Source of the DNA: an uncultured Candidatus Peribacteria bacterium
GTDB lineage: Bacteria; Patescibacteriota; Gracilibacteria; Peribacterales; Peribacteraceae
Direction of reading: 5' to 3'
Assembly: GCA_964497975.1 (NCBI GenBank)
Contig: CAZCFO010000002.1
Span: 115,768 to 179,767 of the forward strand
DNA length: 64,000 nucleotides
Positions 8,492-41,779 of the stretch are shown here, piece after piece; positions within the stretch are counted from its first letter, which is position 1; the number at the start of each line of letters is the position of its first letter. Under the pieces are notes generated by a model. The model made no database searches. It had not been told where the DNA came from and worked only from the letters and a program-made list of their open reading frames with translations. The position numbers were made by a program, and so were the translations under genes.

Positions 8492-8532
8492 AATTTGACG
8501 GGAAAGCAGGAGCACTTTACATCTATAGGCGT

Positions 8533-11052: not shown

Positions 11053-11144
11053 TGCTGGATACTACGCGACTGCGGGGAAAGCGGGTTTCGAAAAGTACGG
11101 GAAAATATCTGTCTCATTCTACGGTCAATGCTACAGTCGTCGCC

Positions 11145-15752: not shown

Positions 15753-17270
15753 ATGAAATACTTCCTCTACTGCCGCAAATCGTCGGACCGGGAGGACCGC
15801 CAGATCCTGGGGCCCGAGGCGCAGAAGCGGCTCCTCCTGGAGTTCGCCGGTAAGAAGCACCTGGACGTCGTCGACGTCTACGTCGAGCACCAGACGGCGT
15901 ACAAGAGCGGCCGACCGCTCCTCAACGAGATGCTCAAGCGCCTGGAGCGGGGCGAGGGCGACGCCATCCTGACCTACCACCTGACGCGGCTGGCCAGAAA
16001 CAGCTTCGACGGCGGCCGGATCATCTACATGATGGACGAGCGGACCATCCGCGAGATCTCCACGCTGGAGAAGACCTACACCAACCACGCCGACGACAAG
16101 TTCCTGATGCAGATCCACTTCGCCATGGCGAAGAAAAGCTCGGACGACACCAGCCAGTTCGTGACCCGCGACATCGAGTCGAAGCTCCTTAAGGGGGAGT
16201 ACCCGGGCCTGGCCCCCCGCGGCTACCTCAACATCACCCGGGACGGGCACATCGCCCGCTCGCGCGACACGACGGAGCGCTACCTGCAGCTGCTCAAGCT
16301 CGGCCGGCCGCTGAGGCGCGAGGAGATCGACCCGGTGGAGGGCCCGCTCGTCCGCTGGCTCTTCGAGCAGGCCGCGGAGGGGAAGAAGACCGTGCGGCAG
16401 CTGCAGCGCCTGGGCTTCCAGGCGGGGCTGCGCTGCCCCAAGAGTGGGCGGATGCTCACCAAGGCCACCGTCCGCAACATCCTGACGAACCCCTACTACT
16501 ACGGGGCCATCGAGTACCGCGGGAAGCTCTACACCCAAAACGTCCAGCACGAGCCGCTCGTGTCCAAGGCGGTCTTCGACCGGGCCGTGCAGGCCCTGGG
16601 CCGGCGGGGGCGGTTCCGCAAGCACGTCTACACCTTCGGGCGGGGCTTCGCCCACTGCGGGAGCTGCGGCAGCGTGGTGACCGCGGAGACGCACAAGGGG
16701 CACGTCTACTACCGCTGCGCGAAGTCCAAGACCACCTGCGACCAGAAGAAGTTCGTCCGCGAGGAGGCGCTGGAGTACCAGGTGATCGAGCTGCTCGACG
16801 GCCTGCGGATACCCCGGGCGTTCGCGGAGTACGCCCGCGGCCGCCTGCCGCAGGTGCAGGCCGAGCAGGAAAAGGTCGCCGCCCACCTGCGCGGGCGCTA
16901 CGAGGCGCGGGTGGCCGAGTGCCAGGGGACGCTGGAGCGGCTGCTGGAGTTCAAGACGTCGCCCAACAACGCCGACGGCCGGCTGCTCTCCGACGAGGAG
17001 TACCTGCGGCAGCGCGAGCGCATCCTGGAGGAGCTGGACGCCTGCAAACGCCAGCTGTCTGGGCTCGGCGGGACCGCAGGGGCGGCCCCCGTGAAGGAGC
17101 TGCAGTCGCTGATCCACAGGTTCAACGACTCCACATCCGAGGAGAAGCAGTCGATCCTGCACCAACTCGGGACGAACTGGAAAGTCCGGGACGGGCGCAT
17201 CACCGGAGAGTTGCGGGAGCCGTATAGCACTCTGGTTGGCCTTGCGGCCAGCGGGCAAGGAAACGAATGA
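15753..17270 (+). CDS. large serine recombinase
   Basis: N-terminal resolvase motif YCRKSSDRED (catalytic Ser), TYHLTRLARN, a recombinase domain, Zn-ribbon CGSCGS...YYRC and a C-terminal coiled-coil-like region; 505 aa. Confidence 0.85.
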   Translation: MKYFLYCRKSSDREDRQILGPEAQKRLLLEFAGKKHLDVVDVYVEHQTAYKSGRPLLNEMLKRLERGEGDAILTYHLTRLARNSFDGGRIIYMMDERTIREISTLEKTYTNHADDKFLMQIHFAMAKKSSDDTSQFVTRDIESKLLKGEYPGLAPRGYLNITRDGHIARSRDTTERYLQLLKLGRPLRREEIDPVEGPLVRWLFEQAAEGKKTVRQLQRLGFQAGLRCPKSGRMLTKATVRNILTNPYYYGAIEYRGKLYTQNVQHEPLVSKAVFDRAVQALGRRGRFRKHVYTFGRGFAHCGSCGSVVTAETHKGHVYYRCAKSKTTCDQKKFVREEALEYQVIELLDGLRIPRAFAEYARGRLPQVQAEQEKVAAHLRGRYEARVAECQGTLERLLEFKTSPNNADGRLLSDEEYLRQRERILEELDACKRQLSGLGGTAGAAPVKELQSLIHRFNDSTSEEKQSILHQLGTNWKVRDGRITGELREPYSTLVGLAASGQGNE

Positions 17271-17281
17271 GTGACAAACAA

Positions 17282-18253
17282 TCAATCAAGATCGGGAGCT
17301 GATTCTAAATCAAACGAGCGGCCACCCACCTGCAAATTCTTCTTTGAAACCCAAACAAAACCTTTGTCGGGAGTAATAACAGCAACATCGACAGCCCCAC
17401 CCACGCCCGGAACGTCTCCCGGATCACCGCGTATGCCATCCGAGAATCGTTGGATAGCAGTTGTCGTTTGGATTAGAAGGACAGAAAAATCGATGCCGTC
17501 TTGTAACGTCATGGTCCCCCATTGGATAGCGTATTCTAGCTGCTGCAATTGCTGGTTTATAACATCCTGTCCTTGTGTGGAGAAGGCGTTATGAACAAAG
17601 GACAGGTTTCCAATTCGAGGATCAAACCCGAGAACGATCCTTGTTACGACATCAAACTGGCCGATCCAACTCGCCCCAAATTCTTGTCCCTTTTTTGTGC
17701 TATCTCTCTTTGTCTCGACTTCTCCTGGAACATTTACTATCAGGACTTGATGGGAACCATCAGGGTTATATCCGGCCAAATGGAACTGTAAGCGATCTAC
17801 CGCTGCCATGCCGGATTTTTCAATTCCTGCCGGATCAATAAAGGAAAATGTCAAATGTCCTTTTTCTTTCTTAAAAGAAATATTTGTGCAACCTTGCCTC
17901 TCCAGGTCAGCCTTGATTTGAAGAGGTAAGGCTTCGAGCTGTGCATGATACGGATATTTCTTTTCAAAAAAGTCCTCCAACTTTTTCCCGATTTCTTTGA
18001 TAGTCATTTTCTCAATCTCGTGAATTCTTTTAAATTCGTCAAGAAAGTGACTGATGTTCTTCTGTATACCATCTTGATCTTGTAGGAATGCCAAGCCTGC
18101 CATGATCACGCCGACTCTTTTCCCAAGGCGGTACACTTTCGATGCGGAGTCGGAGCCGATCCGGCTGATATTCTTGTGATTGCGATACGACTGCCGACTA
18201 TCTGCGGCGAGGACCATGCCTTCTGACGTGGTAGTGTTGATGCCGAGACTCAT
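17282..18253 (-). CDS. proteasome-beta-like Ntn (Thr) hydrolase with a large insertion
   Basis: MSLGIN-TTTSEGMVLAADSRQSY, GVIMAGLA and GGAVDVAVITPDKGF match the proteasome/HslV fold signature as I recall it. The ATG at 18253 overlaps the upstream stop (ATGA). Confidence 0.6.
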   Translation of the reverse strand: MSLGINTTTSEGMVLAADSRQSYRNHKNISRIGSDSASKVYRLGKRVGVIMAGLAFLQDQDGIQKNISHFLDEFKRIHEIEKMTIKEIGKKLEDFFEKKYPYHAQLEALPLQIKADLERQGCTNISFKKEKGHLTFSFIDPAGIEKSGMAAVDRLQFHLAGYNPDGSHQVLIVNVPGEVETKRDSTKKGQEFGASWIGQFDVVTRIVLGFDPRIGNLSFVHNAFSTQGQDVINQQLQQLEYAIQWGTMTLQDGIDFSVLLIQTTTAIQRFSDGIRGDPGDVPGVGGAVDVAVITPDKGFVWVSKKNLQVGGRSFDLESAPDLD

Positions 18254-19044
18254 AGATCGGAGGGAAAGAAGCGGAGTGCGAAGAACACGCCGAGAAACAG
18301 AACTGCCACCCAGGCGAGAGCCTCGATACCGAAGCCAATGCTCCCAGTTACAGTCTTGAAAAGCAGAAGTGCGATGCTTGACCACAGGGCAGCCGAAGGC
18401 ACCCGAATCGCAGAAGGTGCAGCTTGAGCGTTGCGACCCGCAGTCCATACCGATGGCCGCTGCGTATTTGAATTACTCGTTGAGACGTTTGAGTCGGAGG
18501 CGCTTGTTCCGTTTGCTTGCAAGGTGTGTGATTTGAAGCGCGCAGGATCAACATTCGCTAGCTGGTTCTTGGTAAATGGTGAGGCACCATTCGCTGGGGT
18601 AAAAGAGGGTCTAGGAATTAATTGTTCCATTGGCGCTCTGTGGTCGTACCTCGCGAATGGAAAGCGGAGTGCTGTGGGCATCCGCAATTCCCGATAGCTC
18701 TTGTCGGTCAGCTGCATTGAGCGGGGAGATTTCTTTACGAGGTAGCCTTTCTTGATCAGAGCGCCCACGACACCTGCCGCGGACTTGTGGTCTGAAAGGC
18801 CGATGGTATCCGCAATCTCTTGTAGGGTCGGTGCAGAGAGATACCGACAGCGGTATTCGAGAACGAATTGCAGAACTCGGAGCTGGTTTTTAGAAAGCAC
18901 GGTCGGTAGTTTACTACCCACTGGGTGGGTAGCGCAAGCGCACTGCGCAAAAAGCTGCTTTTTTTCGGTAAGAAAAGCTTCGCCTATCCTCTGCGTAAGC
19001 AAGGATTTGAACCCACTTTTTCGCTTCTGTTCGCCATCTAACAT
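18250..19044 (-). CDS. LexA-N-terminal-like winged-helix protein with a C-terminal membrane anchor
   Basis: LSKNQLRVLQFVLEYRCRYLSAPTLQEIADTIGLSDHKSAAGVVGALIKKGYLVKK resembles the LexA DNA-binding domain. Low-complexity linker, then two C-terminal hydrophobic segments. Trimmed to the ATG at 19044 so it does not overlap the tRNA. Confidence 0.55.
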   Translation of the reverse strand: MLDGEQKRKSGFKSLLTQRIGEAFLTEKKQLFAQCACATHPVGSKLPTVLSKNQLRVLQFVLEYRCRYLSAPTLQEIADTIGLSDHKSAAGVVGALIKKGYLVKKSPRSMQLTDKSYRELRMPTALRFPFARYDHRAPMEQLIPRPSFTPANGASPFTKNQLANVDPARFKSHTLQANGTSASDSNVSTSNSNTQRPSVWTAGRNAQAAPSAIRVPSAALWSSIALLLFKTVTGSIGFGIEALAWVAVLFLGVFFALRFFPSDL

Positions 19045-19110
19045 CGTGAATATTTTGTCGTGGGCGTCAACGATGGCGTACAGATGCCCAAAAAATAGGT
19101 GACAGAATTT

Positions 19111-19185
<75 letters not shown>

Positions 19186-19979: not shown

Positions 19980-21635
19980 TTACACCCCGCCCTCCGCGCG
20001 CATCGTGCACCGCACGAGCCGTAATGTCGTGTACGAAACCTGTTCCCCGAGGGTGTCGAACACCGGCCGCAGCCGGTCGGTGCCGCATTCCTCGAAGGCG
20101 TCGCGGATGCTCTGGATGTCGGGAACACCCTGCGCGAGGTAATCGAGCTCCAGCGGAATCCCCTGCTCCAGGAAGTCCTCGATGTAGAGAAGGACGCGGT
20201 CCGGCTTCACGTTGCAGGCCGTGACGATGTCGTCGAACGGCTTCTGTTCGTCGAGCATCGCGCGAATCATGCCCGCGCGGCGCAGTTTCACGCCTTCCCC
20301 GGTTTTCTCCTTCTTCGGCTTCTTCACTTTCTCAGGAGCAACGAACAGCGGCCGCGGCGTGTACGTGCGCATTTCGTCGGCAAGCGAGTCGTAGAGCTGT
20401 GTCACCAGCTGCTCTGCACGGATGGACGCTGGTGACCAGCGTTCCACGAAGAGACCGGCCGTGGAGCGGACACGGCTGAGCGCGACGTAGGCCTGCCCCG
20501 GTTCCCAGAGTGACGAGAGATCGACGATCATCCGGTCGAGCGATGCGCCCTGGGCTTTGTGGATGGTCGAAGCCCACGCGAGGCTCACGGGAAAGTTCCA
20601 CGCGCCGAGGATCTCGTTGCCGTCGCCGTCGAGGCATGTGAACTTCTGCTTCTCGAGCTCGATGGTGTCGCCGGTGAAGAGCGTGATATAGAGGAGCTCT
20701 TCCGTGATCGAGCGGATATGCCCCAGGCTGCCGTTCACGTACAGCCGCTCGGGAGTCACGTCGTTCTTGCGGAGCATCACCAGGGCGCCTTCCTTCAGGT
20801 TCAGGATCTCGGGAATCGGCAGCGATTTCTTCGCCGATTCCCTGTACCGCTCGTCGCCCGCGTACTGCGTCGCGAACGAATGGACGGGTCCCGGAATCGA
20901 CTGCAGGCGGCGCTGGTTGTACTCCTCGGCCTGGGCCCGGTGCGGGTAGAGCCGCGTGGCGTCGACGTTGTCGGAGAGCTGCGTGGTACGGTCATTCAGA
21001 AAATCGCGCACATCGTCGTTGACGATGCCCGCACGGACGAAGTTGAGGATATCGAGGAAATCCGCGTCCTGCGTGCGCATCACCGTCGAGAGCAACGCCG
21101 GCCGGAACTCGCTGCGATGCCAGACGTGATGCAGGAACGCCCAGTCCTTGTCGTATCCGCCGTAGGTGACGGGCGGCAGCTGCGCGAAGTCCCCCACCGC
21201 GATGATGCGCAGTCCTCCCCAGGGCTCGTCGCTCCGGCGTGCAATCCGCGAAATCTGTTCCGCGGCGGCGAGCATTTCTCCGGAGAGCATCGAGACTTCG
21301 TCGATCACCACCACGCAGGCGATCTGCAGGCGGCGCATTACCCGGCCGCTGCGCATCGCGCGCGCGACCGTCGCTTCGTAGCCGCCTTCCATGATGCCGA
21401 GTCCGAAGAAGCTGTGGAACGTGCGTCCGCCGATGAGCACCGCCGCCGCGCCGGTGCTGGCCACGACCGGAAAGAGGTCCGACGGTTTGTCCCGGAGGTA
21501 GTGATCGAGAAGGAATGTCTTTCCCGTTCCTGCCGCACCCGTTAAAAAGACATTCCCCTGCCGCTTGAGGATATCCAGCGCCTTGTCCTGGCAGCTCGTG
21601 AGTGCGGGGGGCGCTGCGAGGACGTCTGTGCACAT
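19980..21635 (-). CDS. Pif1/RecD-like ATP-dependent DNA helicase with a C-terminal HTH-like domain
   Basis: Walker A GAAGTGKT, Walker B VVVIDEVSM, GDFAQLPPV, STIHKAQGASLD; C-terminal roughly 100 aa helical domain. Confidence 0.8.
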   Translation of the reverse strand: MCTDVLAAPPALTSCQDKALDILKRQGNVFLTGAAGTGKTFLLDHYLRDKPSDLFPVVASTGAAAVLIGGRTFHSFFGLGIMEGGYEATVARAMRSGRVMRRLQIACVVVIDEVSMLSGEMLAAAEQISRIARRSDEPWGGLRIIAVGDFAQLPPVTYGGYDKDWAFLHHVWHRSEFRPALLSTVMRTQDADFLDILNFVRAGIVNDDVRDFLNDRTTQLSDNVDATRLYPHRAQAEEYNQRRLQSIPGPVHSFATQYAGDERYRESAKKSLPIPEILNLKEGALVMLRKNDVTPERLYVNGSLGHIRSITEELLYITLFTGDTIELEKQKFTCLDGDGNEILGAWNFPVSLAWASTIHKAQGASLDRMIVDLSSLWEPGQAYVALSRVRSTAGLFVERWSPASIRAEQLVTQLYDSLADEMRTYTPRPLFVAPEKVKKPKKEKTGEGVKLRRAGMIRAMLDEQKPFDDIVTACNVKPDRVLLYIEDFLEQGIPLELDYLAQGVPDIQSIRDAFEECGTDRLRPVFDTLGEQVSYTTLRLVRCTMRAEGGV

Positions 21636-23016: not shown

Positions 23017-24540
23017 GTGCATACGCGCGCCCGCCTCCACGGATGGCTGCTTCTCAGTACCGTCTTCTGCACGGGCGCATGCGTGCTGATTCTGGAGGTG
23101 CTTGCGGCCCGGCTGCTCGCGCCGTATTTCGGCAGCACGATGTACGCGTTTTCGAGCGTGATCGGCGTCACCCTCGGCGCTCTGAGCGTCGGGTACGCGC
23201 TCGGCGGGAGACTCGCGGACGCCCGGCCGAACGCCGCGTATTTCTTCGGCATCATTCTGGTGTCCGGTGCCGCGGTGCTGCTGACGAAGCTGCTTTCCGT
23301 CACGGCTCTCGTCCGATGGCACTCCGCGTTCTCCCTGGCGACGGGGCCCCTCGTCTTTTCCATTCTGCTCTTCACGATTCCTTGCGTGCTGCTCGGCATG
23401 CTCTCCCCCTTCGCGATCCGGCTCCTGCAGACGGAGGATCCGTCGCGGGTCGGCAGCCTTTCGGGAAACGTGTTCTTCTGCTCGACGCTCGGCAGCATCG
23501 GCGGGTCGTTTCTGGCAGGCTTTTTCCTGATCCCCACGCTCGGCGTGCAGTCGATCCTGCTGATGCTCGCCGCTGCCCTGCTCTGTATGGGCGGATTCGG
23601 GGTGCTGGTCTTCCGCAGCGGCCTGCGCCGGCCGATCCTTTTCGTGTTTGCAACGCTGCTGGCGTCCGTTCTTCTGGCTGCGGGCTCGCTGGAACGTCAC
23701 AATCCCGACATTCTGCATCAGGAGGAGGGGCTGTATCAGTCGATGATGATCTATGACGCCGAATTCCACGGCCGGATGGCGCGCTTCATGCGTCAGAACT
23801 TCAACGCCTCGTCCGCCGTCTACCTGGATACCGGCGAGCCGGTGTTCGCGTACACGCGCTACTACGCTCTCGCCGAAGCGCTGCATCCCGACCTGCGCAA
23901 GGCGCTCGTCATCGGCGCGGGGGCCTACACGATCCCGCAGCTGCTCCTCGGCAGTTCTCCCCAGGCGGTCACCGACGTCGTCGATATCGAGCCGTCGCTT
24001 CGGGACATCGCCCGGGAATACTTCGGCGTCGCCGATGATCCGCGGATCCGGACGTTCACCGCCGACGGGCGTCGGTTTTTGCAGGGCAGCGGCACGCAGT
24101 ACGATCTGATTTTCTCCGACGCCTACCAGAGCCTGTATTCGATCCCCTCGCATCTCGCGACGCTGGAATTCTTCCGCGCCGGTTCGGAGTCCCTCACGGA
24201 GCGCGGCGTCTTCCTGGTGAACTTCTCGGCGCGCATCCGGGACGAAAATCCCTCCCTGCTCTGGTCCGCGGTCCGCAGCTTCCGGGCGGCCTTTCCTCAT
24301 AGCGCCTTCTTCGCGGTGACGTCGAAGGACACGGAAGAGGTCCAGAACATCGTGTTCCTCGGGTGCAACCGGGAGTCCTGCGGGAATCCCTGCGCGGAGG
24401 CCATGGCATCGGCGTTCCTGGAGGAGGCATGTCGGAACCGGCTGACCGTGGACGACGGTATGCTCGCTGCCCACCCTCTCCTGACCGATGACTACGCACC
24501 GGTGGAATTTCTGGCGACCTTGCAGATGAAAGACTACTAA
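23017..24540 (+). CDS. fused membrane domain / spermidine-synthase-like methyltransferase-fold protein
   Basis: N-terminal roughly 220 aa with multiple hydrophobic helices. C-terminal VIGAGAYT...DVVDIEP...DLIFSDAY, typical of the spermidine synthase fold. GTG start. Confidence 0.7.
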   Translation: MHTRARLHGWLLLSTVFCTGACVLILEVLAARLLAPYFGSTMYAFSSVIGVTLGALSVGYALGGRLADARPNAAYFFGIILVSGAAVLLTKLLSVTALVRWHSAFSLATGPLVFSILLFTIPCVLLGMLSPFAIRLLQTEDPSRVGSLSGNVFFCSTLGSIGGSFLAGFFLIPTLGVQSILLMLAAALLCMGGFGVLVFRSGLRRPILFVFATLLASVLLAAGSLERHNPDILHQEEGLYQSMMIYDAEFHGRMARFMRQNFNASSAVYLDTGEPVFAYTRYYALAEALHPDLRKALVIGAGAYTIPQLLLGSSPQAVTDVVDIEPSLRDIAREYFGVADDPRIRTFTADGRRFLQGSGTQYDLIFSDAYQSLYSIPSHLATLEFFRAGSESLTERGVFLVNFSARIRDENPSLLWSAVRSFRAAFPHSAFFAVTSKDTEEVQNIVFLGCNRESCGNPCAEAMASAFLEEACRNRLTVDDGMLAAHPLLTDDYAPVEFLATLQMKDY

Positions 24541-24658: not shown

Positions 24659-25822
24659 ATGACTTTTATCAAGTCACCCGGTTCCGCTGTCCGCTTCCTC
24701 CCGTCCCTGGGGGGCTGCGCCTGCGCCTTCCTGCTGCTGTCGGCCTCCGTGCCTGCATCGGCACAGACGTACCAGGAGATCCAGAACTTCCGCATCGCGA
24801 TGACGGACGGCGCGTATTCCGCCGCCCCCGGAGCGGTTCTGACGTACAACATCAGCGTCACGAACTCCACGAGCGTCGCCATGAGCAACGTGAGCATCAG
24901 CGACACGGTTCCGCGCGAGCTCATCATCAACTCGGCATCCGATAACGCCGATATCAACGGACAGGTCGTCCAGTGGTCGGGCCTGACGTTTTTGCCCGGC
25001 GAGATGAAGCTCCTGACGCTCAAGGCGACCATCCAGATGTCGGTCCGCAACGCCGCAGTCATCATCAACACCGCGAAAATTGACGGAGGCGCGATGGCGC
25101 AGGACACCACCATCGTTCAGAACGGCCTCGGGCAGGGCGTCGGCTTATCGGTGACGCATAATCCCGACACGGCGGTTGCGGGACAGATTGTGTCGTACAC
25201 GCTGCGCCTGACGAACAGCGAACAGGCCACCAAGGACATCGACGTCCGCGCAAGCTTCAGCAGGAAATACGCGTTCCTGACGGCGACCGATCAGGGCCAT
25301 CCCCGTGGCAATCAGGTGGAGTGGAACAACCTCTTCGTGGACGGAAACGCCGCGCGCGACGTCATCGTTTCCTTCAAGGTCGACGACGCGGTGAAAGCCG
25401 GCGAGGTGCTCAGCTTCAACGCGAGCATTCCGGGCTCCCAGGTCGAAGATCCGGTGACGGTATCCGCCGCCGGCCCCGCACAGGTTGCGTCAAGCGCCAC
25501 GGTTTCCCAGCAGCCCGCCGATGCGTCGAGCGGCTATGGCGCGTTTCCGATCGATCCTAATGCCTACGTAAACGAGTCTGTTCCGACCGATTTCCTTCCG
25601 ACGGCGGTCGCAGAACCAGCGCCGGCTGCAGTGCTCGCGGAAACGCAGCAGATTATGCCCCAGACTGGTATCGCCGACTTCACGGGCGCACTTGAAAACA
25701 CCCGCATCTTCCTCCGTCCCATCGCCGAAAACCCCGCCGCCTCCGGCGCCACGGGACTGTCGTGGCTCCTTTCCGTTCCCGGTCTTCTGATCGGCGGACG
25801 CCTCGCGCGCCGCCGCCGGTAA
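24659..25822 (+). CDS. secreted surface protein with DUF11-like repeats and an extended LPXTG-like C-terminal signal
   Basis: Signal peptide. Modules GAVLTYNISVTNSTSVAMSNVSISDTVP and GQIVSYTLRLTNSEQATKDIDV. C-terminus MPQTGIADF..LENT..FL.P, then a hydrophobic stretch and RRRR. Confidence 0.7.
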   Translation: MTFIKSPGSAVRFLPSLGGCACAFLLLSASVPASAQTYQEIQNFRIAMTDGAYSAAPGAVLTYNISVTNSTSVAMSNVSISDTVPRELIINSASDNADINGQVVQWSGLTFLPGEMKLLTLKATIQMSVRNAAVIINTAKIDGGAMAQDTTIVQNGLGQGVGLSVTHNPDTAVAGQIVSYTLRLTNSEQATKDIDVRASFSRKYAFLTATDQGHPRGNQVEWNNLFVDGNAARDVIVSFKVDDAVKAGEVLSFNASIPGSQVEDPVTVSAAGPAQVASSATVSQQPADASSGYGAFPIDPNAYVNESVPTDFLPTAVAEPAPAAVLAETQQIMPQTGIADFTGALENTRIFLRPIAENPAASGATGLSWLLSVPGLLIGGRLARRRR

Positions 25823-25858: not shown

Positions 25859-27442
25859 ATGATCCGATCCCCTCTCGCTCTCGGCCGCCGCATCCTCTTT
25901 ACCGCCCTTGTCGCGGCGGTTCCCTGCATTGTTGCGCCGTCCCAGGCACATGCTGCTGCGGATCCCGGATGCATCGACGTCTTCGTGGAAGTTTTCGACC
26001 CCGCGCTCAATCCACTGCCGTTTGCTCCGCAGTTCACCTTCCGCCTCGACGGATCAGCCAGCACGCAGAACAACGCCAACGGCGTCGCGGCATTCACCAA
26101 CGTGCAGTCCGGTTCCCATACCGTCACCATTGACCCGCACTCCGCTTGGCAGACCCTGTCGGTGACTCCCGGCGGCGGAGCGCTCTCCGTTCCGTACGGC
26201 CCCCAGTGCGTCACGGTTCTCTTCAAGATGCAGCTGCTTGTGCCTCCGAGTTCCAGCTCCAGCTCGTCGTCCAGCGTCGCCACCGGATGCATCCGCGTCG
26301 TGAAGCAGACGATCGACGCCGGCGGAGCGCCCATCACGCCCGTGGAGCCGTTTGATTTCTGGCTCGACGGCAACCAGGGCATCACACAGACGAACGACGC
26401 CGCCGGCAACGCCGTCTTCCAGAATATCGCCGCTCCCGGCATGCATCAGATCAATGAATTCCCGAAGGCCGGCTGGACCCTCGTCTCCTGGGTGCCGCAG
26501 AACGGCGACGTGATGGTCAATCCCGGCCCGGATTGCGCCGTGGTCACGTTCATCAATCAGAAGGCCGCCGGCTCCAGTTCCTCCTCAAGTTCGTCGAGTT
26601 CCTCGAGCTCCTCGTCCTCTTCTTCCTCCTCAAGCTCCTCGTCCTCGTCTTCCTCCTCAAGCTCCTCGTCCTCGTCTTCCTCCTCAAGCTCCTCCTCGTC
26701 GTCCAGTTCCTCTTCCTCGGGTCTTTCCGGTTGCATCAACGTGATCAAGAAGACGTTTGCCGAGGACGGCACGACGCCCGTCACGCCGGTCGTTCCGTTC
26801 ACCTTCACGCTCGATGGCAACGCCGGCATCACGGCGATCAACGACGCCACGGGCAACGCCACGTTCCAGAACGTCGCGGCGCCGGGCATGCATCAGGTCA
26901 ATGAGACGCCGCTGGCCGGCTGGACCCTGGTATCCACCGATCCGCCGAACGGCGACGTGATGGTCAATGCGGGGCCTGACTGCGCCACGGTGACCTTTGT
27001 GAACAAGCAGGGTTCCTCCAGTTCGTCATCGTCGAGCACGTCATCTTCCTCGTCCAGCTCCAGCTCGTCATCCTCCCAGAACGGAGGCGGTGGCGGCGGA
27101 GGAGGAGGCGGGGGCGGGGGTGGTGGAGGCAGCGGCGGACACCGCGGTCATGGCACGACATACCTCAGTTATCTGCCGCCGTCCGCGAATGTCGTCGTCC
27201 CGCCCGAGCCCAAACCTCCCCGCAGGCGCATCCAGCCGCCGGTGTACGTCCCGCCGCCGGTCATCAGCGAGCAGCCTCTGCCCAAGACCGGTATCGATGA
27301 CTTCATGCGCCCTCTTGAGAACACGCGCCGCTTCCTGATGCCCCTCGCTTCACGTGAAGGATCCGCTGTCCTGTCGTGGGCGGCGCTCGTCCTTACGGGC
27401 ATCGGCCTCGGCATCGCCGCCGGCAAAAAGGCCTTCCTGTAA
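25859..27442 (+). CDS. secreted surface protein with 3 Cys-capped repeats, 49-Ser linker, poly-Gly, Pro-rich stalk and an LPKTG-type signal
   Basis: Signal peptide MIRSPLALGRRILFTALVAAVPCIVAPSQAHA. Three GCIxVxK...C..V.F.N repeats. C-terminus LPKTGIDDF..LENT..FL.P, then a TM segment and KK. Confidence 0.75.
   Translation: MIRSPLALGRRILFTALVAAVPCIVAPSQAHAAADPGCIDVFVEVFDPALNPLPFAPQFTFRLDGSASTQNNANGVAAFTNVQSGSHTVTIDPHSAWQTLSVTPGGGALSVPYGPQCVTVLFKMQLLVPPSSSSSSSSSVATGCIRVVKQTIDAGGAPITPVEPFDFWLDGNQGITQTNDAAGNAVFQNIAAPGMHQINEFPKAGWTLVSWVPQNGDVMVNPGPDCAVVTFINQKAAGSSSSSSSSSSSSSSSSSSSSSSSSSSSSSSSSSSSSSSSSSSSSSSSSSGLSGCINVIKKTFAEDGTTPVTPVVPFTFTLDGNAGITAINDATGNATFQNVAAPGMHQVNETPLAGWTLVSTDPPNGDVMVNAGPDCATVTFVNKQGSSSSSSSSTSSSSSSSSSSSSQNGGGGGGGGGGGGGGGGSGGHRGHGTTYLSYLPPSANVVVPPEPKPPRRRIQPPVYVPPPVISEQPLPKTGIDDFMRPLENTRRFLMPLASREGSAVLSWAALVLTGIGLGIAAGKKAFL
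26573..26719 (+). repeat. in-frame 49-codon serine homopolymer containing a 27-nt tandem repeat
   Basis: 49 consecutive Ser codons counted by hand. The unit TCCTCCTCAAGCTCCTCGTCCTCGTCT is perfect at 26624-26650 and 26651-26677 and imperfect at 26678-26704. Confidence 0.9.
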
Positions 27443-27449
27443 TCCCCTC

Positions 27450-28463
27450 ATGCCGTCTACGCGCTTCGACCGTGCAATGGCCTGGCTGTACGCATGGTGC
27501 AGCGTTGTGATGACGGTGGGATTATATCTCGACGGATGGTCGCATCAGTTCATCTTCAATCAGATCGATTCGTTCTTCAATCCCTGGCACGCGGTGCTGT
27601 ACGCGGGATTCGCCGCGTGCGCCGTGACGCTCGCTGTGTGGACGTACCTTCGACGCAGCGCATTTCGTACGTTTGCGGATGCCGTTCCGCCGGGGCACGG
27701 ACTCTCGGCCTATGGCGCGATTGCGTTCCTGTGGGGCGGCATCGCCGACCTGACGTGGCATCAGCTTTTCGGTTTCGAAAAAGACATCGAGGGGTTCATC
27801 AGCCCCACGCACCTGGTCCTTGCCGCCGGCATGGCGCTGATGCTTGCGGGCAACGTGCGCCACTGGTCACGCACGCATGCGCGCGGGGAAAAGACGCATC
27901 TGTGGACAGGGCTGCCGCTCGTGTTGGGCATGCTGTGCATGCTGGCGCAGTGGACCTTCCTCACGCAGTACGGCCGCTACACCGACTTCACCGCGACGGG
28001 CATCTTTCCTGACGATGCATTCTATCGCTTCTGCACGCAGACCGTATCGATCCTCGGCATTCTCGTGTTCAGTGCGCTGCTCTCCGGCCTCTTCACGTAC
28101 GTCGGCCGTCGTGCATCCATCCCGTTCGGTTCGGTCACGGTTGTCCTGACGGCGCAGGTGTTCATGCTTGCGATGATCCGCTACGGCATCGACTTGGTTC
28201 CTGCGGGCATCGCCGCCGGCATCTCCGGAGATGTTTTGCTCCGCTATTTCCCGAAGCGGCTCGCTCAGGAAAGACTGCTGGTGTTTGCATTCACGCTCCC
28301 GGCGCTTTTTTACACGGCCGTACTTCTGGTTCTCCACGTGCACGGTGGGCTGTGGTGGTCCATGCATATCTGGAGCGGCGTGCCGGTATTCGCCGGTGCC
28401 GCTGGGCTTCTGGCCGGACTCGCCGGGACCCCGATGGAGCAGGGAAAGGAAACGGATGCATAG
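27450..28463 (+). CDS. polytopic membrane protein with His motifs, function unknown
   Basis: 337 aa with about 8-9 hydrophobic helices and motifs DGWSHQ, NPWH, LTWHQLFG and SPTH. ATG at 27450, 8 nt after the previous stop. Confidence 0.6.
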   Translation: MPSTRFDRAMAWLYAWCSVVMTVGLYLDGWSHQFIFNQIDSFFNPWHAVLYAGFAACAVTLAVWTYLRRSAFRTFADAVPPGHGLSAYGAIAFLWGGIADLTWHQLFGFEKDIEGFISPTHLVLAAGMALMLAGNVRHWSRTHARGEKTHLWTGLPLVLGMLCMLAQWTFLTQYGRYTDFTATGIFPDDAFYRFCTQTVSILGILVFSALLSGLFTYVGRRASIPFGSVTVVLTAQVFMLAMIRYGIDLVPAGIAAGISGDVLLRYFPKRLAQERLLVFAFTLPALFYTAVLLVLHVHGGLWWSMHIWSGVPVFAGAAGLLAGLAGTPMEQGKETDA

Positions 28464-28575: not shown

Positions 28576-31524
28576 ATGGATACCTTCCGCCTTGTGCGCC
28601 GTTTCCCCCTCGCTTTTGCGGGCATCGCTCTGACGTTTCTGCTGCCCATGCACGTGAGCGCATTCGGAAGCACGAACATGATGGTCGACAGCGCGTCGAT
28701 CGTGAAGACCGGACCGTTCACCATCCAGGCCGGAAATTTCATCACGTACACGCTGACGGTAAAGCGCTCGAGCCCCGCCCTCGACATTGTCATCAAGGAT
28801 ACGTTCCCCGCGCACCTCGTCTTCGATCCGGCGCAAAGCACGCCCGGATGCACGATCGCCGGCAACGTGGCAACCTGCAACTGGGCGCGCACGATCAACT
28901 GGTACTCCCCGCAAACGCAGACGACCACCTTCACACTGACGTTCTTCATCCCGCCGGCCAACCCGCCGTGCGTGCTTATCAACACCGCAACCGTGTCGAC
29001 CACTCCGCGCCTGATGTTCGGCGGCGGGCGCGTGGTCCCCAACAACATCATCGTCTACGACTCGGTGACGGCCAATAACACGAGCAGCACCACGACGGCT
29101 GTCACGAACTGCGCGACGAGTTCCTCCTCGTCTTCCTCCAGTTCTTCCAGTTCCGTGCCCACGCAGGGCTGCATCCGCGTCTTCAAGGAAACGTTCAACA
29201 TGCAGGGACAGCAGATCAGCACGGTCGCGCAGTTCACGTTTCATCTCGATGGCGGCGTCAGCGCGGTGAATGATGCGAACGGCGACGCGCTGTTCACCAA
29301 CGTCACTCCCGGAGTCCATACCATCACCGAAATCATCCCCAGCGGATGGACGCAGCTCAACGTCACCCCCGTAGCCGGCGTGGTGGTTGTCGCACCCGGA
29401 AGCCAGTGTGCCGGCGTGGTCTTTAAGAACCAGCAGACGCTTCCGTTCAGTTCCAGTTCCAGCTCCAGCAGCATGTCCAGTGTCCCCACGTCTGGCGGTG
29501 CGGGCTGCATCCGGATCGTCAAGGAAACCTACAACGCGCAAAACCAGCAGATCCCGCCGGTCATGCCGTTCACCTTCACGCTCGACGGCAATCCCGGGCT
29601 TACCGTGACCACCGATGCCTCCGGGGTCGCCACATTCACGGGCGTCGCCGCTCCCGGCGTGCACACCGTCACCGAAAACGTCCCCGCGGGTTGGACCGCC
29701 ATCGGCGTGGACCCCTCAGGCGGCGTCGTGATGGTGAACCCCGGACCGCAGTGTCCGACCATTACGTTTAAAAACCGCCAGAACACCGTCAGCTCCAGCT
29801 CCAGCTCCGTTCCCAGCTCGAGTTCCAGCAGCACGTCCAGCGTGCCGACGTCCGGTGGCGTGGGCTGCATCGAAATTGTGAAGGAGGCTTACAGCGCCCA
29901 GAACCAGCCCATCACGCCCGTGACGCCGTTCACGTTCACGCTTGATGGCAATTCCGGGCTCTCGGTAACGAACAATGCGTCGGGTGTCGCCGTTTTCCAG
30001 AACGTCGCTGCACCGGGCATCCACACGGTTGCCGAAATCGTTCCCGCGGGCTGGACGCTCACAAATGTGACTCCCGCAGGCGGCGTTGTGATGGTCAATC
30101 CCGGTGCACAGTGCACGAGGCTCACCTTCCGCAACCAGCAGAATGCGCCTGCCAGTTCGAGCTCCAGTTCCGTTCCCCCGGCGACCGGGTGCATCCAGAT
30201 TTTGAAGGAAACGTTCAATCCCCAGGGCCAGCCCATCACTCCTGTTGCGCAGTTCACGTACCAGCTGGACGGCGGACCCGTCACCCATAGCGATGGCTCG
30301 GGTAACGCGCAGTTCATCAATGTCACCGCTCCGGGCTTCCATACGATCAGCGAGATCGTTCCTCCGGGATGGACACTCATCAACGTGACGCCGCCGGGCG
30401 GCGTGGTGATGGTGAACCCCGGCAGCCAGTGCTCCGCGGTGGTGTTCAAAAACCAGCAGAACGTGCCGGTCGCCAGCTCCTCCAGTTCCAGCTCAAGCTC
30501 GGTTCCGGCTGCCGCACAGGTGGGCTGCATCGAAATCGTGAAGGAAACTTACACCTCGCAGAACCAGCCAATCACGCCCGTGATGCCGTTCACGTTCACG
30601 CTGGACGGAAATTCCGGATTGTCCGTCACCAATAACTCTGCAGGCGTCGCCGTCTTCCAGAACGTCGCTGCCCCCGGCATCCACACGATCGCCGAGATCG
30701 TGCCCGCCGGCTGGACGCTGACAAACGTCACCCCCGCGGGGGGTGTGGTGATGGTGAACCCCGGCGCGCAGTGCACCCGCGTGACCTTCAAAAACCAGCA
30801 GAACGCCCCCGCCAGCAGCTCCAGCAGCGCCGCTCCCGCAGGCATGGGCTGTATCCGCGTGCAGAAGTCTGCAGGCGTCTCACCGGTCCCGGCGTTCACG
30901 TTCACGCTCGACGGCAACTCCGGCATTTCGGTCACGAATGACGCGGCAGGCGTCGCCGTGTTCCAGAACGTCGCCGCTCCCGGCATGCACCACGTCGACG
31001 AAGCGCCGCTCGCCGGATGGACGCAGGCGTCCGTGTCTCCCGCCGGCGGCAATGTGATGGTCAACCCCGGACCAGACTGCGCCGTCGTGAACTTCGTGAA
31101 CACGCAGGCCGTGAGCTCTTCCAGCTCCAGCTCCTCCTCTCCGGCTTTGGGCTGCATCGACGTGCTCAAGGAAACGTACGACACGCTCGGCAATCCCCTG
31201 CCGCTCACCGCGCAGTTCACCTTCCGGCTCGACAACGGGCCAACCGCGACCAACACCAGCAACGGCCAGGCCCGCTTCAACAACGTGCCGCTCGGCATGC
31301 ACACGGTCACCGAGGATCTTCCCCCGTCGTGGACCCTGCTCTCCGTCACGCCGGTGAACGGCCAGGTGAACGTCACTTCCATCACGCAGTGCGCCACCGT
31401 CGTCTTCAAGAACAAGCAGACGCTCACCGGTCTCGGCGGCTCGTCCTCCAGCGTGAACCCGTTCTGGCTCAATAACACGAACCTGCAGTTCTGGCAGCTG
31501 TTCTACCAGTCACTCAACCCCTGA
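28576..31524 (+). CDS. giant secreted surface protein (982 aa) with 7 Cys-capped repeats and no C-terminal anchor signal
   Basis: Signal peptide MDTFRLVRRFPLAFAGIALTFLLPMHVSA, an N-terminal DUF11-like module (GNFITYTLTVKRSSPALDIVIKDTFP), then 7 repeats separated by Ser linkers. Confidence 0.8.
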   Translation: MDTFRLVRRFPLAFAGIALTFLLPMHVSAFGSTNMMVDSASIVKTGPFTIQAGNFITYTLTVKRSSPALDIVIKDTFPAHLVFDPAQSTPGCTIAGNVATCNWARTINWYSPQTQTTTFTLTFFIPPANPPCVLINTATVSTTPRLMFGGGRVVPNNIIVYDSVTANNTSSTTTAVTNCATSSSSSSSSSSSSVPTQGCIRVFKETFNMQGQQISTVAQFTFHLDGGVSAVNDANGDALFTNVTPGVHTITEIIPSGWTQLNVTPVAGVVVVAPGSQCAGVVFKNQQTLPFSSSSSSSSMSSVPTSGGAGCIRIVKETYNAQNQQIPPVMPFTFTLDGNPGLTVTTDASGVATFTGVAAPGVHTVTENVPAGWTAIGVDPSGGVVMVNPGPQCPTITFKNRQNTVSSSSSSVPSSSSSSTSSVPTSGGVGCIEIVKEAYSAQNQPITPVTPFTFTLDGNSGLSVTNNASGVAVFQNVAAPGIHTVAEIVPAGWTLTNVTPAGGVVMVNPGAQCTRLTFRNQQNAPASSSSSSVPPATGCIQILKETFNPQGQPITPVAQFTYQLDGGPVTHSDGSGNAQFINVTAPGFHTISEIVPPGWTLINVTPPGGVVMVNPGSQCSAVVFKNQQNVPVASSSSSSSSSVPAAAQVGCIEIVKETYTSQNQPITPVMPFTFTLDGNSGLSVTNNSAGVAVFQNVAAPGIHTIAEIVPAGWTLTNVTPAGGVVMVNPGAQCTRVTFKNQQNAPASSSSSAAPAGMGCIRVQKSAGVSPVPAFTFTLDGNSGISVTNDAAGVAVFQNVAAPGMHHVDEAPLAGWTQASVSPAGGNVMVNPGPDCAVVNFVNTQAVSSSSSSSSSPALGCIDVLKETYDTLGNPLPLTAQFTFRLDNGPTATNTSNGQARFNNVPLGMHTVTEDLPPSWTLLSVTPVNGQVNVTSITQCATVVFKNKQTLTGLGGSSSSVNPFWLNNTNLQFWQLFYQSLNP
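29167..31419 (+). repeat. array of 7 in-frame domain repeats of about 100-110 aa
   Basis: Each unit runs GCI..[VIL]K......F.[FL]DG.....D..G.A.F.NV..G.H...E..P.GW......P..G.V.V.....C..V.F.N.Q and is followed by a Ser-rich linker. Confidence 0.85.
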
Positions 31525-31526
31525 CG

Positions 31527-32303
31527 TCAGGCTTCACGCTTCCACTGCATTTCGAAGAGCGCGCCCAGCATGTGAGCCACGGGCGCGTTTTTCATGATGC
31601 ACGCGAACAGCGCGCGGCCCTCGATCGTCGCGATGAAGACCGAGTCGCCGCACGTCATGATTTCCACGGAGGACGGTCCGAAGACGTCTTCGTGGAGCAC
31701 CCGCGTTTCGCGCAGTCTTTCCAGGGTCTGGGCCGCCATGGCCTTCGCTTCGGGACAGTGCGACGCCAGCACCCGGGCCCGGATCTGCTTTTTCTTCCGC
31801 AGTGCGGTCAGCCTCGTGAAGCTCTTCGACAGGTCCGCATGCTCGCCCGAGAGATCCAGCGGCCGCATGAACGAGAGGGTCTCCGAACCGGCCGACGCCT
31901 TCTCGAGCATCTCCTGGTACGCGGCGACGAATCCATCCTTGCCTTCGAAGAAGTGTATGTGGGGAACGCTGGCGGCCCCCGCCATGAGGCCCGTGAGCTG
32001 TCCGGCGACGGCGCGCAGTTCCTCCTGCTGGTCGGCGAGGAGGTCTTTCTGGCGGTCGAGCATTGCCAGGATCCTCTGGGGCGGCTCGCAGGAATAGAGG
32101 TACGTGTTTTTCTTCTTGGTCGCCTTGAGGAAACCGCGCTGGGCCAGCTGGTTGCAGGTGAACTGCGTGGTGCTGCGGACGAGCCGTGCACGCTTGCTGA
32201 TGGTGGAAGCCGGCGCGGCGCCCAGGGGCAGCAGGGCGAGATACACGGCGGCTTCTTTGTCCGTGAGTCCGAGGTTCTGCAGGACGCGTTCGATGGAGGG
32301 CAT
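31527..32303 (-). CDS. TrmB-family transcriptional regulator
   Basis: MPSIERVLQNLGLTDKEAAVYLALLPLGAAPASTISKRARLVRSTTQFTCNQLAQRGFL is a TrmB-type winged helix, followed by a C-terminal effector-like domain. Track ORF trimmed to the ATG at 32303; alternative ATG at 32351. Confidence 0.7.
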   Translation of the reverse strand: MPSIERVLQNLGLTDKEAAVYLALLPLGAAPASTISKRARLVRSTTQFTCNQLAQRGFLKATKKKNTYLYSCEPPQRILAMLDRQKDLLADQQEELRAVAGQLTGLMAGAASVPHIHFFEGKDGFVAAYQEMLEKASAGSETLSFMRPLDLSGEHADLSKSFTRLTALRKKKQIRARVLASHCPEAKAMAAQTLERLRETRVLHEDVFGPSSVEIMTCGDSVFIATIEGRALFACIMKNAPVAHMLGALFEMQWKREA

Positions 32304-32471
32304 GGTCGCATCGTACACGATAATTCTTGAATTGACAAGTATTGTTGGCATCAAATTTTCGCTTAAGAATGCCAAAAAACAAGCATATGGGGGCAATTGT
32401 GCAATAAATCTTGTCGAAATCGACTTCTGTTCATAGAGTTCCTCCTTTTGTCCGCTACCCCCCCCGCTTCC

Positions 32472-35400
32472 ATGGCCCGCCCCCGCTACGGATTCCTGCG
32501 CAGGACAGTTGTTTTCGCCGTGACCGTCAGCACTGCCCTTGCGACGCAGCCGGCCGGCATTGCCCTGGCACTGTCGTCCGACGTCACCCTGAATGTGCAG
32601 CTCCAGGCTCCTGCGGGCCCCTTTGTGGACCATCTCACGAACGCGCTGGCCGTCGCTCCGGGGACGGACATCACCGTGCGCCTGACGTACGATAACCGGA
32701 TGGACCGCGCGGGCACCGACGCCCGCATTCAGGCGATGATCCCCGCCGGCTTCACGCTGCTGCCCGGGACCACGAAAAACTGCCTGCATCCGACGGATTC
32801 CGAGACGTTGTGCAACACGTCCCCCGGCCAGATGGGGCCGATTGTCGAACAGTCGGTCTGGAACGGAAGCTTCCTGGCCATCTCCCCCACTGCGGGAGTC
32901 GAAGGAGTCCCGCCCCATGAGACCATCGGCGTGCTCGAGATGGGCCGCCTGCACTATCTGACGCTCCGCTCGGAAGGCGTCGCCAACTATGAGAACGGCA
33001 ATCCGTACTCGCCGCTCAATACCCGCTGCGCGGCGAACATCAGTTCGCGTTTCGAAAACCCGTACGTCAATTACGCAGTTCCCACGAGCCCGACCTGTCC
33101 CGCCAGCGGCCGCGACCTGTTCGGGCAACGGTGGTTCATCGTCCGCAGCGAGGCCGTCGCCAACTATGAGAACGGCAATCCGCAACCGGCGGTCGATACC
33201 AGCTGCATCCTGAATATTTCCTCGCATTTCCAGAACACCCCCGTCGCCCAGTACGCGGTTCCGGGGAATCCCAGCTGTCCCTCGTATTCGCAGGATACGC
33301 TCGGCAAGCGGTACTACGTTATGCGGTCCGAGGCGGTCGCCAACTACGAGAACGGCAATTTCCAGGATCCCGACATGAACAGCTGCGCCATCAATATTTC
33401 GTCGTACTTCACCAATACCCCCGTCGCCACGTACGCCGTGCCCCGCAACCCCAGCTGTCCGTCGGTGTCACATGACTTGCTCGATCGCACCCGCGGCCGC
33501 GGCTACATCGAATTCCGCATGCGCGCGTCCACCGTGCCGGGCATCTACAACCTGCCCGCCACGATCACCGGCTCCGAATTCACGGCCGCTTCCGATGCCG
33601 GCGCCATCGAGATCCGGGGGCCGGGGACATCCTCGAGTTCCAGTTCCTCTTCCTCCCCCACCGCCTCCTTCGGTTGCATCCGCGTCATCAAGCAGACCCT
33701 CACCTCCGCGGGCGCGCCCTTCACGTCCCCGGAAGCCTTCAGCTTCTGGATGGACGGCAACCAGGGCATCTCCCGGACGACGGACGGCAGCGGCACCGCT
33801 ACGTTCACCAACGTGGCCGCGCCGGGCATGCACCACATCGATGAGTTCGCGAAGCCAGGATGGTTCCTCCAGTCCGTCAGTCCCGCAGGCGGCGACGTGA
33901 TGGTCCAACCGGGTTCCTCGTGCGCGGTCGTCACTTTCGTGAATCGGCAGGGGGCGTCTTCGAGTTCTTCCAGCAGCACTCCGCTCTTCCAGTGCAACGA
34001 CGGCGCCGATAACGACGGCGACGGGAAGATCGATTCCCAGGACCCGGGATGCCACAGCGATGGCAACGCGGCCAATCCCGCCTCGTACGTTTCCACCGAC
34101 AATGACGAGGCAAACCCGGCTGCATGCATTCCTGGCAATCAGCCGACGGTGCTCAAGAGCCAGTTCATCATCACGCCCAACGGCTATTGCTCGAATGCAT
34201 GGCAGTCGCAGATGTGCGCCAACCAGTTGCCAGTGGACTTCGTGCTCGCAAGCAGTACTCCATCCCTCCTCGTCCAGTATCACACCTATTCCGGACACTG
34301 CTCGTCCGTGCGCATCCACATCCGGCTGGATGGCATTCTCAAGACCGTCACCAGGTTCATGGGCTGGCCCACGGACTCCACCGGCTTCCTGGATATCGGC
34401 CCGGTGCCTGCCGGAAATCATCAACTGACATTCCAGGCGGAGGGCACGCCGGGAGGCTGCAATACCGGCACGCTGGGCGGATGGGGCGGCACAGTGAATA
34501 TCGCCCTTCCCGCCCAGAGCTGTCCTGTCGCGCCGCAGTGTTCGGACGCAGCTGATAATGACGGCGACGGCAAGATCGACAGCCAGGATCCGGGGTGTCA
34601 CAGCGACGGCAATGCGGCTAACCCCGCATCCTACGTACCGACGGGCAACGATGAGTTCAATGCCGCGGCGTCCTCGTCATCCTCCAGCAGCTCCACGGCC
34701 AGCACGGGGGTGGGCTGCATCCGCATCGTGAAGCAGGCGCAGAACGCCGCAGGCGCTCCCATCAACTCCACGGAGCCCTTCACCTTCACGCTCGACGGCA
34801 ATCCGTCCCTCAACGTCACCACCGATGCCAACGGGAATGCGACCTTCCAGAACGTCGCCGCCCCCGGCATCCATACGGTCGCTGAACTCTCCAAGAGCGG
34901 ATGGACTCTCCAATCCATGTCCCCCGCAAACGGCGAGGTTCTGGTCCAGCCCGGAGGCAACTGCGCGGTTCTCACGGTCGTGAACCGCCAGACAGGAGCT
35001 TCCAGCTCAAGTTCGAGCTCTTCCATCGGTCAGGGCTGCATCAAGGTCTTCAAGGAGACGTACAACGCCAGCGGCCAGCCGATCGCGACCGTCGCCCAGT
35101 TCACCTTCGTCCTCGACGGAGGGGTCCAGATCCAGAATGACGCAAACGGCAACGCCCAGTTCAACGCTGTCTCCACCGGCGTCCACACCGTCACCGAGGT
35201 CCTTCCCCAGGGCTGGAACCAGCTCAACGTCACGCCCGCTTCGGGCGTCGTGATCGTCTCCCCCGGCAGCCAGTGCGCCGGCGTGGTCTTCAAGAACCAG
35301 CAGACGCTGCCCGTCAGCAGCTCCGTCGCGAATGCCAACACCGGCTGCATCCGCATCGTCAAGCAGACGGTCACGTCGGCGGGGGCGCCCATCACTCCGG

Positions 35401-41512: not shown

Positions 41513-41779
41513 ATGCCTGCACGTCACCTGCTGATCACCGGTATCGTACAGGGCGTGTTTTTCCGTGCTGAGACGAGGAAGAAGGCGCAGGAACTTAGCC
41601 TCGCCGGTTGGGTCCGCAACCTTGCCGATGGATCCGTCGAGGCGCATGCCCAAGGGCCGGACGACGCCCTCGATCAACTGGAGCAGTGGTGCCGGCGCGG
41701 ACCGCCGCGCGCGCGGGTGGATGACCTCGTCGTTACGCCTGCGGAGGAGACGACGTCGGATGTATTTGAGATCCTCTGA
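41513..41779 (+). CDS. acyP: acylphosphatase
   Basis: ITGIVQGVFFR...GWVRNLADGSVE, 88 aa. Confidence 0.8.
   Translation: MPARHLLITGIVQGVFFRAETRKKAQELSLAGWVRNLADGSVEAHAQGPDDALDQLEQWCRRGPPRARVDDLVVTPAEETTSDVFEIL

Follow-up and report, generated by a model that had tools for sequence, protein, structure and literature searches.

The specificity of sortases is usually taught as a pentapeptide code, and their catalytic domain lies outside the membrane. In classical LPXTG sorting signals a short hydrophilic spacer precedes the transmembrane (TM) helix, whereas in the signals read by intramembrane enzymes (exosortase, archaeosortase, rhombosortase and myxosortase) the motif abuts the TM helix (Haft, bioRxiv 10.1101/2023.06.07.544157). 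Recognition beyond the pentapeptide is known from specialised sortase signals, such as NPQTN and NPKTG of class B, QVPTGV of Streptococcus pyogenes and LPQTGS of Clostridium perfringens SrtD, and Bacillus anthracis SrtB needs residues on the N- and on the C-terminal side of the five-residue motif (PMC11987632). In the present study, we analysed a window of 64,000 nt (the whole stretch of DNA under analysis) from an uncultured Candidatus Peribacteria bacterium (GCA_964497975.1, contig CAZCFO010000002.1, positions 115,768-179,767, forward strand), in which three proteins end in an extended tail made up of an LPxTG-type pentapeptide, a conserved block of 17 residues, a spacer, a TM helix and a basic end. 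Peribacteria belong to the Candidate Phyla Radiation (CPR), bacteria for which a life attached to other cells is assumed. The extended tail is a real variant, restricted to one clade, of the cell-wall sorting signal of sortases, and one not previously described, since neither curated models nor full-text literature searches yielded an account of it.

A first-pass annotation made from the letters of the DNA had proposed that three proteins of the window share a C-terminal pattern of this kind. Translation of the intervals 25655-25822, 27278-27442 and 37484-37657 reproduced the quoted tail peptides exactly, and a six-frame regular-expression scan found exactly three copies in the 64 kb, which confirmed the proposal. 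A degenerate DNA pattern (P.TG..D.{5}E[ND]...[FY]L.P) likewise matched the window three times, against 0.00 matches expected from 100 dinucleotide-preserving shuffles. Each tail forms the C-terminus of a long open reading frame (ORF) with a strong coding signal in the GC content of third codon positions (24659-25822, 25859-27442 and 35795-37657), and each consists of [LM]PxTG, a GDFxxP[LI]ENTxxFLxP block, a spacer, a TM helix and a basic end (RRRR, KK and KK, respectively), the distance from motif to basic cluster being 44-47 residues. The N-termini of the three proteins show a basic n-region, a hydrophobic core and an AxA-type site (ASA/Q, AHA/A and AHA/D, the stroke marking the site) and, as read by eye, resemble Sec signal peptides. 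Over the first 22 codons, the tail copies differ pairwise by 4-8 synonymous and 8-10 non-synonymous changes, with a nucleotide identity of 64-74%. Because the copies diverge at so many synonymous codons, their likeness is kept at the protein level, and recent gene conversion or conservation at the nucleotide level was rejected as its source.

Tail protein 1 (387 aa; 24659-25822, + strand, as for all features of the three proteins) comprises a Sec-type signal peptide (approximately residues 1-35 by eye), two DUF11/CLIPPER domains and the extended tail, in which the pentapeptide MPQTG (25655-25669), presumably cleaved by a sortase between T and G, is followed by the conserved post-cleavage block IADFTGALENTRIFLRP (25670-25720) and by the spacer, hydrophobic segment, RRRR end and stop codon (25721-25822). 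Tail protein 2 (527 aa; 25859-27442) carries a signal peptide (approximately residues 1-32 by eye) and SpaA/prealbumin-like modules with poly-Ser and poly-Gly joins; its tail is composed of the pentapeptide LPKTG (27278-27292), the block IDDFMRPLENTRRFLMP (27293-27343), and the spacer, TM segment, GKKAFL end and stop codon (27344-27442). The homopolymer tracts of this protein (26600-27200) include an unbroken run of about 55 Ser and one of 16 Gly residues, and they are candidate sites of slippage-driven length variation or heavy O-glycosylation. Tail protein 3 (620 aa; 35795-37657), with a signal peptide at approximately residues 1-34 by eye, an acidic double-disulfide repeat, four DUF11/CLIPPER domains and a Tyr/Asp-rich linker, ends in the pentapeptide MPQTG (37484-37498), the block AGDFFGPIENTAQFLTP (37499-37549), a variable hydrophilic spacer VSAATEGNA (37550-37576), a TM helix opening with a conserved LPxxxW entry motif (LPLLLWIALIVGGVAVGGVAS; 37577-37639), and the basic/aromatic end KKFIV with the stop codon (37640-37657). 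Pfam and NCBIfam scans identified proteins 1 and 3 as DUF11 repeat proteins, and protein 2 belongs to a minority of tail proteins that lack DUF11. No Pfam or NCBIfam sorting-signal model, TIGR01167 (LPXTG_anchor) included, matched any of the three at E<=1. As regards sortase-assembled pilins, the YPK pilin motif was found in none of the three proteins and no sortase adjoins them.

To what extent the tail is conserved was assessed with the orthologues of protein 3. Its close homologues (52-62% identity, on independent metagenome contigs) all carry the tail, those with a name belong to Candidatus Peribacteria/Peribacteraceae, and the orthologues P0001-P0012 lie in conserved synteny. Among nine orthologues, the mean pairwise identity was 88% for the LPxTG motif, 73% for the block, 63% for the mature body, 56% for the spacer, 46% for the TM helix and 33% for the linker preceding the motif. 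The block is under purifying selection at the protein level, and the tail is modular. As judged from these alignments, the segment that a sortase would discard is under stronger constraint than the protein that would be displayed, in line with the first-pass proposal that the block C-terminal to the presumed cleavage site is conserved. More distant homologues of protein 3 (approximately 36% identity, Peribacteraceae) bear at the same position an ordinary short xPxTG-TM-[RK] tail, for example MPQTGAAMD-TM-RRKY; in these classical tails of the sister lineage the gap between motif and TM helix is about 0-5 residues, and the tail of P0013 is intermediate between the extended and the short forms.

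A wider family was recovered with a profile built from 16 tails, which was used for an exhaustive HMMER search of 1.84 billion representative proteins. The search gave 90 matches at E<=1e-3, of which 22 reached E<=1e-10. About 86 are non-redundant proteins of 58-2597 aa that carry the tail at their very C-terminal end, and the remaining four are multi-stretch, low-complexity false positives. Tail-only profiles in a word-indexed protein search returned almost no matches, the module being too short for a 5-mer index. The family consensus reads LPQTG-x-G-D-[FGY]-[TF]-x-P-L-E-[ND]-T-x-R-F-L-[ST]-P, followed by 6-20 variable residues, [IL]Pxx[VI]W at the start of the TM helix and G[KR][KR][FY]F[LI] at the carboxyl end, and within it the 17-residue block corresponds to x-G-D-[FGY]-[TF]-x-P-[LI]-E-[ND]-T-x-x-F-L-x-P. 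A looser subgroup follows LPQTG[LI]GGF...[IV]RP...SLP[LM][IL]IW-TM-GKR[LI]F. In 87 non-redundant tails the pentapeptide columns behaved as in sortase motifs, with column frequencies of 0.99 for P2 and 1.00 for both T4 and G5, and with L, M or F at the first position in 93%. Conservation in the block was 0.70 for D8, 0.55 for P12, 0.59 for E14, 0.64 for F19, 0.72 for L20 and 0.76 for P22, and the segment after the FLxP proline varied across the family in both sequence and length. From the Gly of the motif to the best hydrophobic window we counted a median of 26 residues (range about 17-38). The contrast drawn in the first-pass annotation, in which the hydrophobic segment of classical substrates follows LPXTG almost directly, therefore stands as to the far longer gap in the present tails, but is overdrawn as to the classical signals, which usually have a short hydrophilic spacer.

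With respect to the passengers, DUF11/CLIPPER was present in 58 of 68 tail proteins and BLAST links joined 74 of 75, so that the idea of highly diverse passengers was rejected and the tail is seen to be mainly the anchor of one class of surface proteins, protein 2 of the window being among the exceptions. DUF11 has been renamed CLIPPER and is a CnaA-like domain with an intramolecular isopeptide bond, found in cell-surface adhesins (PMC12617251). A hydrophobic N-terminus was detected by a crude hydropathy heuristic in 45 of the 67 full-length family members.

The taxonomic range of the tail was determined by scanning one genome per species, for 185,579 GTDB species, with the degenerate DNA pattern, which recalls 54 of 98 known tails and has a specificity of approximately 37 bits. 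Thirty-seven stretches matched, and the 32 that proved to be true C-terminal tails all lie in metagenome-assembled genomes (MAGs) of Candidatus Peribacteria/Peribacteraceae/Peregrinibacteria, distributed over 19 species-level assemblies with no more than three loci in each. None of the other five (in Flavobacterium, Thermoguttaceae, Fimbriimonas, Planctomycetota and one 'Patescibacteria group' MAG) is a C-terminal tail, and about nine such matches would be expected by chance according to a rough estimate from the information content of the pattern and the size of the collection. The same pattern matched 12 stretches in JGI metagenome contigs, including five true tails. In the looser subgroup, the few members that carry a name are Peribacteria or unclassified Patescibacteria. 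Since all true tails of the genome scan and these named members fall in Peribacteria, Peregrinibacteria or unclassified Patescibacteria, the extended tail is a clade-specific signal of the Peribacteria lineage. The search by profile that the first-pass annotation had suggested thus led to about 86 non-redundant proteins, and the genome scan to 19 species-level Peribacteria assemblies; the reservation of that annotation that the tail might be confined to three paralogues was excluded by the breadth of the profile and genome-scan matches.

In its C-terminal place, its [LM]PxTG motif with invariant T and G, its TM helix and its basic cluster, the tail agrees well with the classical LPXTG signal of class A sortases, and the likeness extends to the N-terminal signal peptides, to the adhesin-type passengers (CLIPPER/DUF11 and SpaA-like) and to the occurrence of several substrates per genome unlinked to the enzyme. 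It departs from the classical signal in the approximately 26 (17-38) residues between motif and TM helix in place of a short hydrophilic spacer, in the 17-residue conserved block after the cleavage site, in the conserved [IL]PxxxW entry of the TM helix and the conserved G[KR][KR][FY]F[LI] end, in its restriction to Peribacteria, and in its failure to reach the cut-off of TIGR01167 (15.9 bits). Short Peribacteraceae tails passed this cut-off (P0017 with 16.3 bits and an ORF of contig L043 with 17.1 bits), whereas isolated extended tails scored 12.8 bits at best with only the TM part aligned; the model rejects them because approximately 26 residues part the motif from the TM helix. With the specialised sortase signals named above the tail would share recognition beyond the pentapeptide, but in those signals the extensions amount to a few residues beside the motif, and a dedicated sortase is usually encoded next to the substrates, whereas conservation here reaches P'17, the seventeenth residue on the leaving-group side, and no sortase is linked. 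PEP-CTERM/exosortase, PGF-CTERM/archaeosortase, GlyGly-CTERM/rhombosortase and MYXO-CTERM/myxosortase resemble it as lineage-restricted, modular motif-TM-basic tags with a many-to-one logic of substrates and enzyme, and such tripartite signals are likewise discoverable in silico by a similar approach. They differ in having a motif that abuts the TM helix and a polytopic enzyme, whereas the LPxTG of Peribacteria lies far from the helix, and no sorting model of the exosortase, rhombosortase, archaeosortase or myxosortase type in NCBIfam or Pfam matched the tails at E<=1 or E<=10.

Taking these features together, we consider it probable that the tail is a lineage-specific extended sortase sorting signal, carried mostly by CLIPPER/DUF11 adhesin-like proteins, in which the block on the P' side serves docking or positioning. 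The tail proteins, most of them adhesin-like with CLIPPER/DUF11 isopeptide domains, would be exported by the Sec pathway by means of their N-terminal signal peptides and would be retained in the membrane through their TM helix and basic end. A sortase whose gene lies elsewhere in the genome would, we infer, then cut between T and G and join the Thr to a peptidoglycan precursor, by which the protein would become attached to the wall. The block, situated on the leaving-group side, would most likely dock on the extracytoplasmic domain of the sortase, about 25 residues above the membrane, or position the scissile bond for it. A motif approximately 26 residues away from the membrane, taken with the extracytoplasmic location of the sortase domain, fits a sortase-like enzyme and speaks against an intramembrane protease; an intramembrane processing enzyme is accordingly unlikely. 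In addition, the sequence-specific conservation up to P'17 exceeds the needs of a pure spacer and thus argues for docking or positioning, or else for a role of the remnant peptide. Of the two possibilities raised in the first-pass annotation, a dedicated recognition step is plausible, whereas a different processing enzyme is disfavoured by the 99-100% invariance of P, T and G, by the xPxTG-TM-basic tails of the sister lineage, two of which pass TIGR01167, and by the distance of the motif from the membrane.

Several observations weigh against this assignment. No sortase was found in the window or in approximately 490 kb of related loci, so that enzyme and substrate could not be paired. The credible ORFs of the window, all scanned with Pfam and some with NCBIfam, include no sortase; scanning the window and related loci for a TLxTC-type motif revealed none; phmmer with Staphylococcus aureus SrtA, which would be a weak query for divergent CPR sortases, found nothing among the six-frame ORFs of approximately 428 kb (the window and 44 loci) and a further approximately 64 kb; and the Pfam gene contexts of six contigs contained none. 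A sortase A is reported from complete Peribacteria genomes (PMC4736985), and the sortase family is present in more than half of CPR genomes (PMC6744442). As none occurs in the loci searched while the literature reports a sortase in Peribacteria genomes, the enzyme is taken to be unlinked to the tail genes. Furthermore, in three proteins of one small subfamily from different Peribacteria MAGs, the pentapeptide and the block are kept but the chain stops directly after the block (L013, position 5110, -; L022, position 2266, -; L029, position 2966, +). A frameshift artefact was rejected as the cause, since neither a TM helix nor a basic end could be recovered in any frame, and the classical retention-dependent sortase mechanism does not predict such variants; in this subfamily the start of the pentapeptide is degenerate (PPVTG, RPATG, LIQTG), with the block well kept. 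On the Peribacteraceae contig L043, a looser extended tail (P0128; 3-269, +) occurs together with a 299-aa protein (8463-9362, +) whose classical LPKTG-TM-RRR tail passes TIGR01167, and the extended form is therefore not simply the only format of the lineage. The variants lacking a TM helix, the degenerate pentapeptides and the L043 pair suggest an independent function of the block and show that a single genome may combine both signal formats. AlphaFold, finally, predicted the TM helix with confidence but gave no structural hint of docking by the block, for which the predicted local distance difference test score (pLDDT) was low to moderate (56-71) in the isolated tail. An AlphaFold2 model that joined the last CLIPPER domain to the tail had a mean pLDDT of 48 and left linker, motif and block unpacked at approximately 25-31; the idea that the block forms part of the folded last domain thus found no support in a model that is itself too poor to exclude it.

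The conservation of the block could also be accounted for if an ordinary housekeeping sortase needed the pentapeptide alone and the block were kept for a role of the membrane-retained remnant peptide itself, for example in envelope sensing or in clearance by a specific protease. A precedent is the two-component system SGO_1180 of Streptococcus gordonii, which senses the C-peptide left by SrtA processing (as cited in PMC11326707), and both the conservation of the block above the mature protein and its persistence in the three variants without a TM helix, suggestive of a function of its own, would be in agreement with such a role. Those variants, however, could leave no remnant in the membrane; a sensed remnant should moreover conserve its TM helix, the identity of which is 46% against 73% for the block, and neither a sensor kinase nor a protease recurs beside the tail genes, so we regard a remnant role as unlikely. 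Rather improbable, too, is a purely geometric stalk, in which block and spacer would raise the LPxTG to a sortase site unusually far from the membrane without any sequence-specific recognition. The tight distribution of the distance between motif and TM helix, the variability in sequence and length past the FLxP proline and the presence of S-layer envelope genes (S-layer homology (SLH) proteins) would all suit a stalk, but a pure spacer has no need of conserved D8, P12, E14, N15, F19, L20 and P22 across approximately 86 divergent proteins, nor of an identity among orthologues so far above the 33% of the true linker.

A non-sortase enzyme, such as a membrane protease or transpeptidase that might read FLxP or [IL]PxxxW-TM-G[KR][KR]FF[LI] with the LPxTG as a vestige, was also considered, inasmuch as the conserved TM entry and C-terminal end recall the motif-TM-basic signals cut by intramembrane enzymes and the subfamily with degenerate first residues keeps the block well. 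A candidate in the window might be the polytopic membrane ORF directly downstream of tail protein 2 (27474-28463, +), which contains repeated Trp-His/His motifs (LDGWSHQF, NPWHAV, LTWHQLFG). This ORF gave no match in Pfam or NCBIfam, and it was rejected as a conserved partner because no other tail locus has a homologue of it. Together with the near-complete invariance of P, T and G, which shows the motif not to be vestigial, with the lack of any match to the curated models for intramembrane enzymes, and with the location of the motifs of such enzymes next to the TM helix, this renders a non-sortase enzyme quite doubtful. We give still less credence to an uncleaved tail, which would act as a permanent membrane anchor with a conserved juxtamembrane segment binding wall or S-layer components: a binding element would suit the conservation of the block, and cleavage between T and G is itself deduced from the motif, but the near-invariant LPxTG-type pentapeptide and the standard sortase signals at the same place in the sister-lineage orthologues would be left unexplained. 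A loose likeness of GDFTxPLE to the prepilin-peptidase site (G/FTLIE) was dismissed on account of a different spacing and the lack of a hydrophobic helix behind it.

Returning to the extended sortase signal, a more specific version, which we put forward tentatively, is that the block might be an exosite tag for a Peribacteria-specific subclass of sortases, with two-site recognition of pentapeptide and docking peptide that would have evolved once through insertion of approximately 25 residues into a classical signal. If this were true, it would be the first sortase with a specificity set mainly by the leaving-group peptide, and the cognate enzyme and its docking tag might be usable as an orthogonal pair for protein ligation; if the block should prove dispensable, the finding would shrink to a lineage-specific curiosity. 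A clade in which 17 discarded residues are conserved above the anchored protein would show that recognition or positioning can reach far onto the leaving-group side. These anchors escape the annotation models now in use, which leaves the Peribacteria surface proteome under-annotated; the tail alignments could seed a new sorting-domain model, and the tail marks candidates for wall-anchored adhesins in an uncultivated lineage.

The window also encodes proteins with SLH domains (11040-12527, + and 46091-47377, +), MurJ (41733-43292, -) and a Mur ligase (47423-48706, -), which indicate that this CPR organism has a wall of peptidoglycan with attachment of the S-layer type. The presence of SLH proteins and sorting tails in one window thus points to two different strategies of wall attachment side by side. 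The neighbours of the tail genes in the window (Pth, a bPH membrane protein, signal peptidase I, NusG, MurJ, PurL, an SLH protein and a Mur ligase) are syntenic in the orthologous loci, which have SecE in addition. Clustering of neighbouring ORFs across the tail loci yielded no recurrent candidate enzyme, sensor kinase or protease; the neighbours that do recur represent housekeeping synteny (Pth, the bPH protein, signal peptidase I, SecE, NusG, MurJ and PurL) together with an EEP-like protein, and none of them was accepted as the processing enzyme.

Just upstream of the island of surface proteins, the GC content dips to 0.55 (against approximately 0.62) between 14500 and 22700. To the dip correspond a large serine recombinase (15753-17270), a LexA-like DNA-binding ORF (18250-19137), a tRNA-Gln gene (19111-19185, -), a PIF1-family helicase (19980-21635) and unassigned ORFs, and the region looks like a mobile element integrated at a tRNA gene. 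Serine recombinases are also found near the orthologous locus L001 and the homologous locus L044. Immediately upstream of tail protein 1 lies a fused protein of the major facilitator superfamily and spermidine synthase (23017-24540, +; NF037959, 231 bits). Two very large secreted proteins (28576-31524 and 32397-35633, both +) share with tail protein 2 an SpaA/prealbumin-like module of approximately 95 aa and poly-Ser linkers, and neither has a sorting tail: the former ends in the aromatic-rich NPFWLNNTNLQFWQLFYQSLNP, and the latter contains acidic double-disulfide repeats and ends in ...NRKTGG. Antisense between these giant genes lies a 566-aa ORF (31527-33227, -) with a TrmB-type helix-turn-helix domain, which overlaps the mechanically called start of the second; that gene probably begins further downstream than called, and the island may be under the control of the TrmB-like protein.

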